This document shows positions 3,021 through 56,208 of a DNA stretch of 64,000 bases, one piece after another. The position numbers and the translations under genes were made by a program. The notes under the pieces are model-generated. The model ran no database searches, was not told where the DNA came from, and saw only the letters and a program-made list of their open reading frames with translations. Positions within the stretch are counted from its first letter, which is position 1; every line of letters begins with the position of its first letter. This stretch comes from Candidatus Nomurabacteria bacterium RIFCSPHIGHO2_02_FULL_42_19 (GTDB lineage: Bacteria > Patescibacteriota > Minisyncoccia > Phycocordibacterales > UBA9973): NCBI GenBank assembly GCA_001785615.1, contig MFUG01000013.1, positions 11,006-75,005 on the forward strand, given 5' to 3'.

Positions 3021-4289
3021 CTAAAACTTTAGTTTTCTCAAAAACTTGGATTTTTTCTTAAAAGGTCCAATGAGCGCCAGATTAAGTTTGTTATTCTTGA
3101 AAATGTGCTGGGCTAGAGTTTTTATTTGGCTAGCGGTAACACGGCGTATTTTATCTATTTTGTCTTCTGCATTTTTTGTTTCGCGTTTTAATAGTTCCTG
3201 CCCTCCATAAAAATTGGCGATGTCATCAGTGGACTCAAGCGAGAGCTTCAGGTTGCCTATCAGGCATTCTTTTACCTTATTTAATTCTTCCTCTTCTACT
3301 TTGTAAATTTTTAGCTTCCGACATTCCTCTAGTACTGCCTTTATCACTTCGGCTATCCTTTTATTATCCACTCCGGCAGAAATTTGAAAAAATCCGTGGT
3401 CAGTATAAGCGTCGTTATACGCGCGAACATAATATCCTACTCCCATCTCCTCGCGTAATTTTTGAAAAAGTCGGGAGCTCATTCCGCCACCCAAAATTCC
3501 GCCTAATACTGAAAGTATTGCGCTTTTTTTGCTAAACAAATCATGGGTGCGTACGCCCAACACGAAATGTGTTTGGTCTGTTTTCTTGAATTTAACTAGG
3601 GCGCATGGCTTTTTCTGTATTTCTTTCACTTTAACTTTTTTTGCTTTTTTCCCACGGGAAACATTATCAAAAATCTTTTTTATTTCTTTCAGCACTTCCT
3701 TTTCATTCACCTGCCCGACCACTACGATCACCGTGGCCTCCGGTAGATAGTGCTCTTCTTTATAGCGCACAAAATCATCCCGTTTCATTCTGAAAATATT
3801 TTTTTTAGAACCGGCAATATTCCAGCCCGCTGGCTGATCGCCATAAAGTAGTTTCATGACCAGGTCCTGCACATGTCGGTTCGGCATATCTTCATACATA
3901 TTTATCTCTTCAATGATTACTCCTTTCTCCTTTTCTATTTCTTGTTCTGGGAAAGTGGAATTAAGATAGACATCTGAAACAACATCCAGAATTTGCTTAA
4001 AATGCTTCGCATCGGACTTGGCATAGTAACCTGTATATTCTTGGGCGGTAAAAGCATTATATTCACTCCCTAGGGCGTCTAATTCTTTGGAAATGTCTAT
4101 CGCTTTGGGCCTGCGGAGTGTTCCCTTAAAACACATATGTTCTAAAAAGTGGGAGATGCCGTTTAATTTTTTCGTTTCGTACTTGCTGCCCGCTTCCACC
4201 AAAACCAAGACCGTCACCGTCGGATTATCCTGCATCGGAATAGTTACCACCCGCAGTCCGTTTTTAAGAGTTGTTTTTGAGAATCCCAT
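3021..4289 (-). CDS. M16 (pitrilysin/insulinase) family zinc peptidase
   Basis: Inverted zinc-binding motif HFLEH (HxxEH) near the N-terminus. 422 aa with the M16 two-lobe layout. Confidence 0.8.
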   Translation of the reverse strand: MGFSKTTLKNGLRVVTIPMQDNPTVTVLVLVEAGSKYETKKLNGISHFLEHMCFKGTLRRPKAIDISKELDALGSEYNAFTAQEYTGYYAKSDAKHFKQILDVVSDVYLNSTFPEQEIEKEKGVIIEEINMYEDMPNRHVQDLVMKLLYGDQPAGWNIAGSKKNIFRMKRDDFVRYKEEHYLPEATVIVVVGQVNEKEVLKEIKKIFDNVSRGKKAKKVKVKEIQKKPCALVKFKKTDQTHFVLGVRTHDLFSKKSAILSVLGGILGGGMSSRLFQKLREEMGVGYYVRAYNDAYTDHGFFQISAGVDNKRIAEVIKAVLEECRKLKIYKVEEEELNKVKECLIGNLKLSLESTDDIANFYGGQELLKRETKNAEDKIDKIRRVTASQIKTLAQHIFKNNKLNLALIGPFKKKSKFLRKLKF

Positions 4290-4971: not shown

Positions 4972-5008
4972 ATTGCCTATTTTTACGCTATAGCATAATT
5001 ATAGACAA
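4972..5008. repeat. Family-1 palindromic repeat, copy b
   Basis: Direct repeat of 4327-4363 (34/37 identical). Abuts the start codon of ORF 4368..4970. Confidence 0.85.
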
Positions 5009-5037
5009 CAAGTTTTATAACTTGCCTTTATATAATT

Positions 5038-5295
5038 TCAAGAAATTCGGTAACCCAAAAATTCATAATCTAAAATATCGGTAGAATATTCTTCTTTTAT
5101 TTCTTTCTTAAGAGTGTTCTCAATAGTATCCCCAAACTCGACTCCCCCGCCGCCGGGATCCCAGGTCCCTTTTTCGTCTCTGGAATTTTGTCCTCTTTTA
5201 CTTAAAAGAACATTTTTTTTCCCGTCATGGCAAAAGTAAACTACTGCAATTCCGGTATAATCTTCACCTCTTTTCATATTAGATTTTTTCTTCAA
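5038..5295 (-). pseudogene. NUDIX hydrolase, C-terminally truncated (85 aa)
   Basis: The Nudix box GGGVEFGDTIENTLKKEIKEE is present, but the ORF stops only 18 aa after it. The missing ~50 aa would lie where the family-1 repeat-flanked module now sits. Confidence 0.5.
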
Positions 5296-6532
5296 TATAT
5301 TTTACTAGGTCAGAAACCTTTATTCGCTCTTGTAGGGCAGTATCGCGGTCGCGGATGGTGACAGTATCGTCTTTCAGCGTGTCAAAATCAATGACGATGC
5401 AGTAAGGGGTGCCGATTTCGTCCTGCCGACGATAACGCTTGCCGATATTGCCGTTATCGTCCCAGGCCACGCGACCGAATTCGGCCTTGAGGGGCGCATA
5501 GACCTTGGTATTGGCATATTCTACTAACTCGGGTTTATTCTTTAGAAGTGGCGAGACGGCGCAAATAACTGGCGCCATGTTGGGTTTAAACTTGAGATAC
5601 ACTCTGGGGCCGTCCTTTTCGCCTGCCCCGTTGGAAACTTGCTTTCCTTCGGGGTCTTCTTTATAAGCAGAAAGAAGAAGCGCGAGAACTGCGCGATCCA
5701 CCCCGAAAGTTGGCTCAATTACATGTGGTACTATTTTTTCATTTTTCTCTTCATCAATGTAATCAAGCTTATGATTACTTAAATCAAAATTCGTTCGGTA
5801 AGCCAGGCCGAAAAGTTCTTTACGTCCGAAAGGATAATCGAATTCAAAGTCAGTCGTTCTTTTGGAATAATGTGCTCTCTCCCCATTCGGAACCTCAAGT
5901 TCGTGCACTTTTGTCATATCAATGCCTATTTCTTTCATCCATTCAAGCATTTCATCCTTCCAGTATTCAAAATATTTTTCCCATTCGGATGCTCTTACAA
6001 AATATTCTATTTCCATCTGTTCAAACTCACGCTGACGAAAAAGAAAATCGCGAGGAGCGATTTCATTTCGGAAGGCCTTACCTATTTGGGCAATACCGAA
6101 AGGTAGCTTGGGATGATGGGCGTCAATTAGGTTCTTGAAATTTACAAAAATCCCCTGTGCGGTTTCCGGGCGTAAATAGGAGGTAATAGCTTCTTCGCCT
6201 GCCCCCACTTGGGTTTGAAACATTTCGTTAAATTTTTTACCCTCGGGGGTTGTGCTTAAAAACCCGGCTACGTGACCCGAAGCAACCCAAACTTTTGGAT
6301 TAAAAATGATGGAAGAATTCAGGCCATACATATCACGCCTGGAATCAACAAACTTTTTCCACCAAGAATTTTTTATATTGTTTTGCAACGCAAGACCGTA
6401 ATGTCCATAATCGTAAAAACCGGCCAGTCCTCCATAAATTTCCGAACTCTGGAAAACAAAACCGCGCCTTTTGCAAAGCGAAACAATTTTCTCCATTAGA
6501 TTGTCATCAGTTTTTGACATATTTTTATTCAA
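5279..6532 (-). CDS. glyQS: Glycyl-tRNA synthetase, dimeric class II type
   Basis: The N-terminus FQSSEIYGGLAGFYDYGHYG and the class II core motifs match GlyRS (alpha2 type). Confidence 0.85.
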   Translation of the reverse strand: MNKNMSKTDDNLMEKIVSLCKRRGFVFQSSEIYGGLAGFYDYGHYGLALQNNIKNSWWKKFVDSRRDMYGLNSSIIFNPKVWVASGHVAGFLSTTPEGKKFNEMFQTQVGAGEEAITSYLRPETAQGIFVNFKNLIDAHHPKLPFGIAQIGKAFRNEIAPRDFLFRQREFEQMEIEYFVRASEWEKYFEYWKDEMLEWMKEIGIDMTKVHELEVPNGERAHYSKRTTDFEFDYPFGRKELFGLAYRTNFDLSNHKLDYIDEEKNEKIVPHVIEPTFGVDRAVLALLLSAYKEDPEGKQVSNGAGEKDGPRVYLKFKPNMAPVICAVSPLLKNKPELVEYANTKVYAPLKAEFGRVAWDDNGNIGKRYRRQDEIGTPYCIVIDFDTLKDDTVTIRDRDTALQERIKVSDLVKYIEEKI

Positions 6533-54787: not shown

Positions 54788-55192
54788 ATGAGCATAAAAA
54801 AAATAACACTGCTATTTCTTTGTTTATCATTAGTTGGCCTAGGTGTCTCTTATTATATTTTTCAATTAGATTTACAAACAAGCGCCACGGGAGACCTATT
54901 GTTGAAATTAAGGGATGGTCTGTTTTACGGCATGTCTGCTCTCGCTCTCATATTTCTCATTCTCCTCTTTCTCCCTCGCGCGTTTCCCGCGTGGAAAAAG
55001 TTTGCTATTTGGTTTATACCACTTGCGACTTTACTTTTTATTTTCTACCCCGACCCGGGCTCCGGCGATTATTTTTCTCCTTACCCTGAACAAGTTTATA
55101 AATGGGTCAGTATTCTTTATGTGGTTATAAGTATTGGAATTATCGCTTTCTCAACTCGTAAATCAAGCGTCACACCCACTTTACCCAACTAA
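54788..55192 (+). CDS. Small integral membrane protein (4 TM)
   Basis: 134 aa with four hydrophobic helices. No motif. Confidence 0.45.
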   Translation: MSIKKITLLFLCLSLVGLGVSYYIFQLDLQTSATGDLLLKLRDGLFYGMSALALIFLILLFLPRAFPAWKKFAIWFIPLATLLFIFYPDPGSGDYFSPYPEQVYKWVSILYVVISIGIIAFSTRKSSVTPTLPN

Positions 55193-55220
55193 AGTAGCTA
55201 GGCGGTAAAATAATTTGAAA

Positions 55221-55333
55221 GGATTAAAGGTGTCAGAGATTAAAGGTGGATTAAAGGTGTCAGGAACCTTTCTTTTTACACTATTACATGGGATTAAAGG
55301 TGTCAGGAACCTTTCTTTTTACACTATTACATG
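55221..55333. repeat. Upstream REP-like array: four copies of ttaaaggtg(tcag), including a 43-bp unit duplicated in tandem (55248-55290 and 55291-55333)
   Basis: Two adjacent copies of ggattaaaggtgtcaggaacctttctttttacactattacatg, preceded by ggattaaaggtgtcag and agattaaaggtgg. Confidence 0.85.
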
Positions 55334-55346
55334 TTAATATAGATCT

Positions 55347-56021
55347 ATGGGAAGACCCCAAAGAACTGACGTTGGTGGATATGTGTACCATGTATTAAAT
55401 CGAGCTAATGCTCGGATGACTATATTTAGTAATGATAAAGAATATCAAGGCTTTGAAGCAATACTTTTCGAAGCAATGGAAAAATTTAAGATGAGACTCA
55501 TCGCATACACTCTGATGCCAAATCATTTTCATTTAGTTCTGTATCCAAAATATGAGGGCGAGATAAAAAAGTTCATGCACTGGCTAACCCTTACCCACAC
55601 TCAGAGATGGCATGTATATACAAAAACAATAGGCCATGGTCATTTATACCAAGGAAGGTATAAATCATTTCTAGTAGAAGAGGATTCATATCTATGGGTA
55701 CTGCTTGCGTATGTTGAAAGAAATGCATTACGCGCAAAATTAGTAAAATCTCTCAAAGACTGGAAATGGTCAAGCTATTACAAAAGATTATATGGCACAG
55801 CTCTGCAGAAAAAATTACTGGCCACTGATAGCATTGCTTGGCCTGATAATTACGACAAATTACTTTCTCTAACTGAAGAAAAAGAAAAGTTAGAAACTAT
55901 TAGAAACTCTGTCAACAGAGGAAAACCTTATGGTGGTAATAGTTGGACCGGTAAAGTTTTGAAAAAGTTTGGTTTAGAAATAACAGAAAGAAAGAGAGGA
56001 AGACCAAAAAAAGGTTCCTGA
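55347..56021 (+). CDS. REP-associated tyrosine transposase (RAYT) / IS200-like Y1 HUH transposase
   Basis: HUH motif LMPNHFHLVL and the catalytic Tyr region GRYKSF...YLWVLLAYVERNALRAKLV parallel E. coli RayT/YafM (LPEHMH ... YxxxxDYIxxNPV). Confidence 0.75.
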   Translation: MGRPQRTDVGGYVYHVLNRANARMTIFSNDKEYQGFEAILFEAMEKFKMRLIAYTLMPNHFHLVLYPKYEGEIKKFMHWLTLTHTQRWHVYTKTIGHGHLYQGRYKSFLVEEDSYLWVLLAYVERNALRAKLVKSLKDWKWSSYYKRLYGTALQKKLLATDSIAWPDNYDKLLSLTEEKEKLETIRNSVNRGKPYGGNSWTGKVLKKFGLEITERKRGRPKKGS

Positions 56022-56095
56022 CACCTTTTACCCTTTTACCACTGACACCTTTTACCACCTTTTACCCACCTTTTACCTTCTGACACCTTTTACCT
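56013..56095. repeat. Downstream REP-like array: three copies of ctgacaccttttacc plus degenerate ccaccttttacc variants
   Basis: Inverted relative to the upstream array. The first copy overlaps the transposase stop codon. Confidence 0.85.
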
Positions 56096-56208
56096 TATGG
56101 TATTTATTGATTTACTAGGGTTTTACTTTACCCAACTAAGTTTTAACGCAAAAATCAAACGTGGCTTTGACGGGCAAATTCATGCCCTTTCCTGTATAAT
56201 ATTTAAAT

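Follow-up and report, generated by a model that had tools for sequence, protein, structure and literature searches.

The question raised by this locus is what kind of unit is formed by a small tyrosine nuclease gene and the inverted repeats on either side of it, at positions 55193-56124 of a 64,000-nt stretch of contig MFUG01000013.1 from Candidatus Nomurabacteria bacterium RIFCSPHIGHO2_02_FULL_42_19 (hereafter the window, to which coordinates refer unless another contig is named). The original prediction took it for a mobile repetitive extragenic palindromic (REP) unit, with a REP-associated tyrosine transposase (RAYT) at its centre and inverted arrays of REP copies on its flanks. We find a compact insertion of ~0.93 kb in the chromosome of this member of the candidate phyla radiation (CPR, or Patescibacteria), present in one genomic context, and judge that it is probably a 'TIRtron' encoding a 'TIRYT', that is, a RAYT-like Y1 nuclease gene lying between inverted 19-21-nt near-palindromic repeats centred on CAG (AAAGGTGTCAGGAACCTTT). 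The TIRtron/TIRYT class of RAYT relatives (PMC3733652; subclass 2.1-like in the scheme of PMC6006769) is the best fit to the locus, and a better label for it than REPtron. The family concerned is large, already described and common in CPR bacteria, among which this genome is no exception.

A Y1 nuclease gene between inverted terminal repeats

The open reading frame (ORF) at 55347-56021 (+) encodes 224 aa that match the Y1_Tnp domain (PF01797, E=6.7e-15; 55.7 bits against a cutoff of 23), a check that the original prediction had itself proposed. Its HUH motif is H60-F-H62 and its catalytic tyrosine is Y122, all three residues being invariant in alignments of 15 and 47 sequences, with Y122 in the family motif RYVERNPLRA; other invariant features are a YQGR(Y/F)K motif and the RGRP of the C-terminal tail RGRPKKGS. 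The sole PDB sequence match is E. coli TnpA_REP (4ER8, E=1.1e-5), with which the HUH and Tyr residues align. An AlphaFold (AF2) model built on the 47-sequence alignment (pLDDT 89.6, pTM 0.87) consists of an N-terminal beta-alpha core and a helical C-terminal part, an extension of ~85 aa, and its top Foldseek match is again 4ER8 (TM 0.73 on the target), with 14% identity over the aligned folds; the ISDra2, IS200 and IS608 transposases come next. The protein has the Y1 fold and the catalytic residues of this group and is closest to TnpA_REP, in agreement with the earlier description of a RAYT-like Y1 transposase with HUH and Tyr motifs. Two more specific NCBIfam models score below their cutoffs, the RayT equivalog (REP-associated tyrosine transposase) at 54 bits against 80 and the IS200 model at 19.5 bits against 55. 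No Bac_DnaA_C or helix-turn-helix (HTH) domain was detected by Pfam search in the C-terminal tail, whose RGRP we take to resemble an AT-hook and whose last codons come from the right repeat.

The features of the locus, from left to right, are:

55178-55192 (+): left 15-bp direct repeat ACTTTACCCAACTAA; target sequence, made up of the last codons and stop of a 134-aa gene; single copy in the empty site of relative L160
55193-55220 (+): left outer spacer of 28 nt with a degenerate GGTAAAA unit; absent from, or weakly alignable to, the empty site of L160
55221-55248 (+): two truncated 'stutter' copies (few flanking nt plus outer arm), GGATTAAAGGTGTCAG and GATTAAAGGTG
55248-55290 (+): distal copy of the 43-bp unit, with a full left terminal repeat at 55253-55271; absent in strain contig L135
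55291-55333 (+): proximal copy of the 43-bp unit, with the left terminal repeat AAAGGTGTCAGGAACCTTT in functional position at 55296-55314
55332-55340 (+): extended -10 element TGTTAATAT, ending 6 nt before the ATG
55347-56021 (+): gene for the 224-aa Y1 HUH nuclease (RAYT-like/TIRYT); HUH codons 55524-55532, Tyr122 codon 55710-55712
56010-56028 (-): right terminal repeat, inverted 19-mer; TGA stop (56019-56021) in the loop, and last codons K K G S encoded by the repeat
56029-56094 (-): right array, in which some outer-arm copies are complete (GGTAAAAGGTGTCAG at 56042-56056 and 56080-56094) and those in between are truncated
56095-56124 (+): right outer spacer of 30 nt; 11/12 inverted match of 56107-56118 to host 55155-55166; not in the empty site
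56125-56139 (+): right 15-bp direct repeat ACTTTACCCAACTAA

The 11-mer AAAGGTGTCAG occurs in six exact copies in the window, all of them at the locus (55226, 55253 and 55296 on the + strand; 56018, 56042 and 56080 on the - strand), against an expectation of 0.03 from shuffles, 0/100 of which reach six. The 19-mer AAAGGTGTCAGGAACCTTT is found at 55253-55271 and 55296-55314 (+) and at 56010-56028 (-), where it spans the TGA stop, and the inverted arms reach 28 nt at 89% complementarity with the exact 19-nt core inside. Four upstream core copies had been counted originally; these come down to three complete copies and a fourth, at 55238-55248, that is truncated to GATTAAAGGTG. The count of three downstream copies accompanied by degenerate forms is borne out, as three complete 15-mers plus truncated CACCTTTTACC forms. 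Truncated copies retain a few flanking nucleotides and the outer arm of the repeat (GATTAAAGGTG, GGTAAAAGGTG) without the remainder.

Each repeat can form a small hairpin with stem AAAGGT/ACCTTT and loop GTCAGGA (-3.4 to -4.2 kcal/mol, z = -1.2 to -1.8), and the pairing first proposed as the hairpin, gtcaggaacc/ggttcctgac, turns out to match the left copy with the right one. The two repeats are truly inverted, with their loops on opposite strands. No GTAG-type tag accompanies them, the 4 nt 5' of the stem varying between elements (GGAT, GGGT, GTGG, AAGG, CGGA and others), and a CGTC tag is also absent from the repeats.

The left repeat abuts the extended -10 element of the gene's own promoter. 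A generic sigma-70 scan of the + strand upstream of the gene returned no site, and the promoter was recognised because 86 upstream regions could be lined up, in most of which a TGnTAnnAT-type extended -10 ends 6-7 nt before the ATG (judged by eye and uncounted); in GC-rich hosts, a TTGAC -35 box directly abuts the left repeat. From this arrangement we infer that the mRNA is leaderless or nearly leaderless, and that the left repeat is placed to act as an operator.

The family across phyla and its likeness to TIRtrons

Homologues of the nuclease number 7603 at E<=1e-3, and a length of 224 aa is shared by nearly all of the 120 listed. Those with names, among the matches listed, belong to the CPR lineages Paceibacterota, Shapirobacteria, Kaiserbacteria and Parcubacteria; such a unit is no rarity in CPR bacteria. 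We compared 93 elements whose sequences are mutually related, 80 of them metagenome loci and the others the window and loci collected earlier, and found the gene-plus-repeat anatomy to be common to all 93 genes, from CPR bacteria, Planctomycetota, NC10, Nitrospirota and other phyla. Of the left ends, 82/85 contain the centre motif GG[GT]G[TA]CAG, as do 86/89 right ends. Across the family the right repeat lies mostly over the stop codon or shortly after it, and its commonest offset covers the stop codon as in the window (30/86 ends, from 89 related loci). The distance from left core to right core is 714 nt both in the window and in three close lineages (L001-L010, fetched by exact protein), in which the left repeat lies ~35 nt before the ATG and the right repeat over the stop codon.

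The family repeat is a 21-nt near-palindrome centred on CAG, with variants that include AAAAGGTGTCAGGAACCTTTT, AAAAGGGGTCAGGTACCTTTT, AAATGGGGTCAGCCACCATTT, AAAGGGGGTCAGGAGCCCTTT and AAAAGGTGTCAGACACCTTTT. Despite 21 repeat variants, the central 11-mer is the same at left and right in 66/77 elements, and repeat class follows protein clade (0/1000 permutations). When the repeat is treated as a seven-pair stem, 78.7% of cells are paired compared to 73.4% in shuffles (0/500; 129 distinct 23-mers), with the proposed register pairing best, and stem pair 5-19 is found in all four Watson-Crick states (A-T 42, T-A 41, G-C 5, C-G 2). Because the thermodynamic support for the hairpin is weak, the argument for it rests on this covariation, and the data favour a small hairpin, with a palindromic binding site in double-stranded DNA as the alternative.

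Seven lineages outside CPR (NPL-UPA2, NC10, Gemmataceae, Nitrospiraceae, Pirellulaceae, Vicinamibacteria and Sedimentisphaerales) have full-length homologues, 44-54% identical, that are flanked by the identical core as well. A scan for the 15-mer pattern, with one genome per species, yielded at least 120 blocks, from a collection in which we estimate that chance matches to the bare 15-mer would be at the ~2000 level; the genome of the window is not represented among the matches listed. Of these, 71/120 blocks carry the extended motif, and the other 49 blocks, without it, are probably chance noise. Included are 15 inverted dimers, with members <=120 nt apart, along with 6 pairs of gene size and 59 copies that are unpaired, with Planctomycetota dominant and Proteobacteria, NC10, Nitrospirota, Acidobacteriota, Saccharibacteria and other Patescibacteria also represented. 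Solo and decayed ends are present in CPR genomes as well.

Two further observations concern copy number outside CPR bacteria. One beta-proteobacterial metagenome-assembled genome (L025, L090, L095) holds four perfect palindromic dimers, GGGTGTCAGGAACCTTAGnnnTnAGGGTTCCTGACACCC, on three contigs, a dispersal of the core resembling that of REP doublets forming hairpins (REPINs). One Pirellulaceae locus (L093) contains two homologous, near-identical nuclease genes (3443-4163 and 5007-5727) with identical left ends in a single 8-kb block, and the unit is therefore multi-copy in some lineages.

The name TIRtron was introduced by Di Nocera et al. 2013 (PMC3733652), who describe RAYT-like genes with terminal inverted repeats (TIRs) instead of GTAG REPs, the proteins being named TIRYTs. 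As set out there, the TIRs lie at a fixed distance from the gene, some over its 3' end, share GGGGWSAS, and are sometimes multiplied as singles, dimers or groups; 26 examples are given from the genomes of 2013. Measured against that account, the window agrees in that its RAYT-like Y1 gene lies between long inverted repeats with no relation to GTAG REPs, in its fixed core spacing, in a right repeat over the stop codon, and in the singles and dimers found elsewhere in the family; the shared motif is matched at 7/8 positions by GGTGTCAG of the window and at 8/8 by GGGGTCAG or GGGGACAG of relatives. The window differs from those examples in its host, a CPR bacterium. Outward stutters, polymorphic end duplications, promoter overlap, stem covariation and target duplication are not described in the text of that paper, and a full-text literature search for the repeat sequence returned no paper.

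According to Quentin et al. 2018 (PMC6006769), TIRYTs correspond mostly to TnpA_Y1 subclass 2.1, equivalent to RAYT Group 1 of Bertels, which Bertels et al. 2017 (PMC5581495) consider the most IS-like RAYT group. Subclass 2.1 is characterised by NH[YF]H, W[EQ]/FQ and Y[IV]..NP motifs, a long C-terminal extension (median 238 aa) and low copy number (PMC6006769). The window protein resembles it in NHFH, in YVERNA (family consensus YVERNP), in its 224-aa length and helical ~85-aa extension, and in low copy number, and its family likewise has a wide taxonomic spread with signs of horizontal transfer. It differs in that its W-motif is YQ and in that no HTH or DnaA_C domain was detected by the Pfam search described above.

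Filled and empty sites, and the arrays at the ends

The unit is an insertion, since syntenic relatives exist without it. Contig L160 (EamA 83% identical) has a homologue of the 134-aa gene whose 3' end, ACTTTACCCAACTAA, is followed directly by the EamA upstream region, and in L248 (EamA 79% identical) an LCAT-like gene and small membrane proteins (33% identical to the 134-aa protein) are followed by EamA after a 21-nt gap, again with no unit between. A predicted empty-site 25-mer, CACCCACTTTACCCAACTAAGTTTT, had no match in metagenome contigs; the true empty site is a few bases off this prediction and was reached via homologues of the EamA neighbour. The 15-mer ACTTTACCCAACTAA brackets the unit in the window (55178-55192 and 56125-56139), a length that 0/300 flank shuffles reach, and occurs once in L160 (220-234); spacers of 28-30 nt separate each 15-mer from the repeat arrays. 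Around three other elements (L001, L003 and L005) we found no flanking direct repeats above chance, and consequently the 15-bp repeat is real here but no family trait on present evidence.

Three other features of the target region are recorded here. A target duplication of ~40 nt, considered since both junctions resemble the empty site, was dropped as unproven: outside the 15-mer the likeness is weak, and out of keeping with the perfect match of the 15-mer itself. Host positions 55155-55166 (CTCGTAAATCAA), just upstream of the left 15-mer, match positions 56107-56118 of the right spacer (TTGATTTACTAG) in inverted orientation at 11/12 positions, which might represent a templated or fold-back junction. 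Finally, a repeat-like stretch that encodes K-W-V-S, ATAAATGGGTCAGTATTCTTTAT, occurs at 55098-55120 within the 134-aa gene, 73 nt before the unit was inserted; the empty-site relative has it too, and the resemblance is probably due to chance.

The exact nuclease protein is present on 10 contigs from different samples, always in the same context, with an LCAT-like gene, the 134-aa membrane-protein gene, an EamA gene and a CYTH gene as neighbours on all 10; one ENA contig (ERZ27254754 k141_198994) is 100% identical to the window. Each exact protein likewise has one context across samples (the window's, P0012, P0005, P0017, P0050 and P0061), and homologues of 57-85% identity sit in unrelated gene neighbourhoods. 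In one relative the call of the upstream gene continues through the left repeat, and the insertion may have truncated that gene. In the lineage of L005-L010 the full element is followed, 150 nt downstream, by a ~90-bp element that has no ORF and is composed of one left and one right end, and the 20-kb L001 locus contains the two flanking repeat copies and no others.

Two placements in relatives are also of note. At L001 (9841-9912, in a Paceibacterota relative) the left-end repeat array starts ~21 nt past the 3' end of a gene for tRNA-Trp. The element of L162 (444-743, 890-1564 and 1588-1737; protein 86% identical) adjoins, on its downstream side, a fragment whose homology is to the C-terminal 50 aa of the small membrane protein that precedes the window element; the same gene family was hit at a different position, which could reflect local hopping or a target preference.

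These observations bear on the possibility that the unit is immobile, in which case the nuclease would be a domesticated cellular gene, the palindromes would serve as operator, promoter or terminator, and the duplications would result from ordinary replication slippage. Such a reading can draw on the one fixed context in 10-16 contigs from many samples, on a 224-aa length and a sequence very strongly conserved across phyla, on the overlap of the left repeat with the promoter together with the weak hairpin, and on the generally housekeeping-like character of RAYTs (PMC5581495). However, filled and empty sites occur in syntenic relatives, proteins of 80-87% identity lie in unrelated neighbourhoods (one of them directly after a tRNA gene), and miniature derivatives, solo ends and decayed ends are all found, as are the two near-identical genes in one 8-kb Pirellulaceae block. 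Moreover, regulation leaves unexplained the 3' inverted copy at every gene, which co-varies with the 5' copy, and we consider domestication improbable.

With regard to the ends themselves, the two 43-bp units (55248-55290 and 55291-55333) are 100% identical, as the original prediction had stated. Contig L135, which is 99.9% identical to the window over 4.7 kb downstream, has the unit once; the copy number of the 43-bp unit is thus a polymorphism among close strains, and the suggestion that the duplication is recent holds. Whole-end tandem duplications occur in eight lineages, and are perfect except in L204 (one mismatch):

Window, left end: 43 bp
L149, left end: 57 bp
L182, left end: 43 bp
L171, left end: 20 bp
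L215, left end: 26 bp
L161, right end: 28 bp
L180, right end: 34 bp
L204, right end: 31 bp

The duplication is polymorphic in two of these lineages, between the window and L135 and, between samples, between L149 (57 bp) and L152. Duplicated units always take in the outer boundary of the repeat, which would fit either slippage of the polymerase at the hairpin or an enzyme that repeatedly nicks and rejoins the DNA abortively. Judging from these comparisons, end duplication is a recurrent, fast-turnover property of these ends.

An extra exact 7-nt copy of the outer arm lies within 60 nt outward of the repeat at 50/167 ends and within the same distance inward at 1/167, and 9 of the 167 ends have an additional complete core outward. 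Read in this light, the flanking arrays of the window, which had been interpreted as REP copies, appear not to be independent REPs but local tandem copies, in truncated form, of the terminal repeat's outer arm, such as occur across the family.

Additional polymorphism was noted at two ends. Compared with the window (55291-55360), L135 (1543-1610) shows a cluster of 5 mismatches within ~30 nt, close to the -10 element and the ATG; the next 4.6 kb are free of mismatches, and identity upstream is only 97%. Such a pattern points to recombination with its breakpoint at the 5' end of the nuclease gene, or to a chimeric assembly there. In the P0050 lineage, one sample (L155, 3676-3700) differs from L149 by 10 nt (ATATATCTGC-like) inserted immediately beyond the right repeat, a further indel polymorphism at an element end.

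The nature of the arrays is also relevant to the original proposal of a classic REPtron, in which a single-copy RAYT is flanked by members of a genome-wide REP/REPIN population in this Nomurabacteria. Parts of that proposal stand: the gene is a RAYT-like Y1 nuclease closest to TnpA_REP, with the class 2 Y..NP consensus YVERNP, it is single-copy in the data examined (10 contigs and the 64 kb, in which no second nuclease homologue was found), and it has inverted, hairpin-capable repeats on its flanks. Furthermore, other phyla disperse the same core as solo copies and REPIN-like inverted dimers, several per genome among the matches listed, and one CPR relative has an ORF-less miniature element. 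For this Nomurabacteria genome our repeat counts cover the 64-kb window. There the core, which the original prediction expected elsewhere, is absent from the other ~63 kb, as are the 19-mer and the palindromic centre motif, and the L001 locus likewise has only two copies; a dispersed REP population is not supported, because the core is absent from those ~63 kb and the protein has one context. The want of a GTAG or CGTC tag, a RayT score under its cutoff, arrays that consist of truncated stutters, and a repeat that overlaps both coding sequence and promoter all point the same way, and make a REPtron decidedly improbable.

Known transposases and a possible mode of action

IS200/IS605 TnpA proteins have a Y..Q motif and belong to multi-copy elements, often with tnpB, whose two ends are read on one strand and whose insertion does not duplicate the target. 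That the unit is an active autonomous IS200/IS605-type insertion sequence, moving by single-strand peel-and-paste, is highly improbable, for although it has a PF01797 domain, the Y1 fold, subterminal hairpins and a length <1 kb, and although many homologues lie on ~1-kb contigs, as expected if repeats break assemblies, the median contig of the collection is ~1 kb anyway, the Y-motif is Y..N[PA] (class 2) and not Y..Q (PMC6006769), the IS200 model scores 19.5 vs 55 bits, and the unit has one context per protein, true inverted ends, no tnpB and a target duplication. The likeness to IS608 and ISDra2 lies in the shared Y1 HUH fold, and their TnpAs recognise small hairpins at the element ends.

E. 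coli TnpA_REP/RayT, reportedly described by Ton-Hoang and colleagues in 2012 together with REP-BIME sequences (PDB 4ER8), provides the closest solved structure, and resembles the window in its single-copy gene with inverted flanking hairpin repeats. The window protein differs by the additional ~85-aa helical C-terminal domain and the AT-hook-like tail, and the locus differs in lacking a GTAG guide and, in the 64 kb, dispersed REPs. Moreover, REPs are lineage-specific, whereas the core of the window family is nearly invariant across phyla.

Several points weigh against the TIRtron reading, or against parts of it. The protein has a single context and the repeat has no copy beyond the locus in the 64 kb, and current activity in this genome is therefore conjectural. 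The hairpin is weak, and a dimer bound to double-stranded DNA could account equally well for palindromy and covariation; the covariation itself is modest, falls mostly in one or two pairs and comes from related sequences. To our knowledge, Y1 transposases do not duplicate their targets, and a 15-bp target repeat is unexpected from Y1 chemistry. Given loops on opposite strands, the analogy with peel-and-paste may fail. Lastly, genes of subclass 2.1 are reported to have no flanking REP-like sequences (PMC6006769), whereas the window clade has a regular pair of hairpin repeats, and the assignment, being one of motifs, is to a 2.1-like protein.

For a TIRtron, a mode of action may be proposed by analogy with TnpA_REP and IS608 TnpA. 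The enzyme would bind the small hairpin of each repeat in single-stranded DNA, for example at replication forks, and would nick and rejoin at the hairpin through Tyr122. Such nicking and rejoining would have moved the unit to its present site, and might occasionally spawn repeat-only copies, while binding at the left repeat would probably also repress the overlapping promoter, so that the element stays quiet and in single copy. On this view the arrays that extend outward, like the 43-bp duplication, would be by-products and not separate REPs, arising by local tandem re-copying of a repeat end, through hairpin slippage or abortive nicking and re-ligation, in a process frequent and reversible enough to leave population polymorphism.

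A bolder proposal, which we regard as rather doubtful, is that the clade moves as a true-TIR unit by a chemistry unlike peel-and-paste. Cuts would then be made on opposite strands in or beside the invariant GTCAG loop, a 15-bp target duplication with templated junctions would be possible, abortive cutting and rejoining would write the stutters and end duplications, and a single 21-nt address would be read by thousands of orthologues, from CPR bacteria to Planctomycetota. Relative to the literature available to us, what is added is a core that scarcely varies between phyla, covariation in its stem, overlap of repeat and promoter, outward stutters with recurrent polymorphic end duplications, and the 15-bp duplication at this site; such additions alone do not establish a new mechanism.

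If the end stutters and the target duplication are products of the enzyme, they would indicate a mode of Y1 transposition differing from that of IS608; otherwise, the unit is an ordinary member of a class already described. Either way, the locus provides a well-resolved example of a very large RAYT-like family that is common in small CPR genomes, and its filled and empty sites, its strain polymorphism and the family-wide anatomy supply concrete 19-21-nt substrates and predictions for biochemistry.

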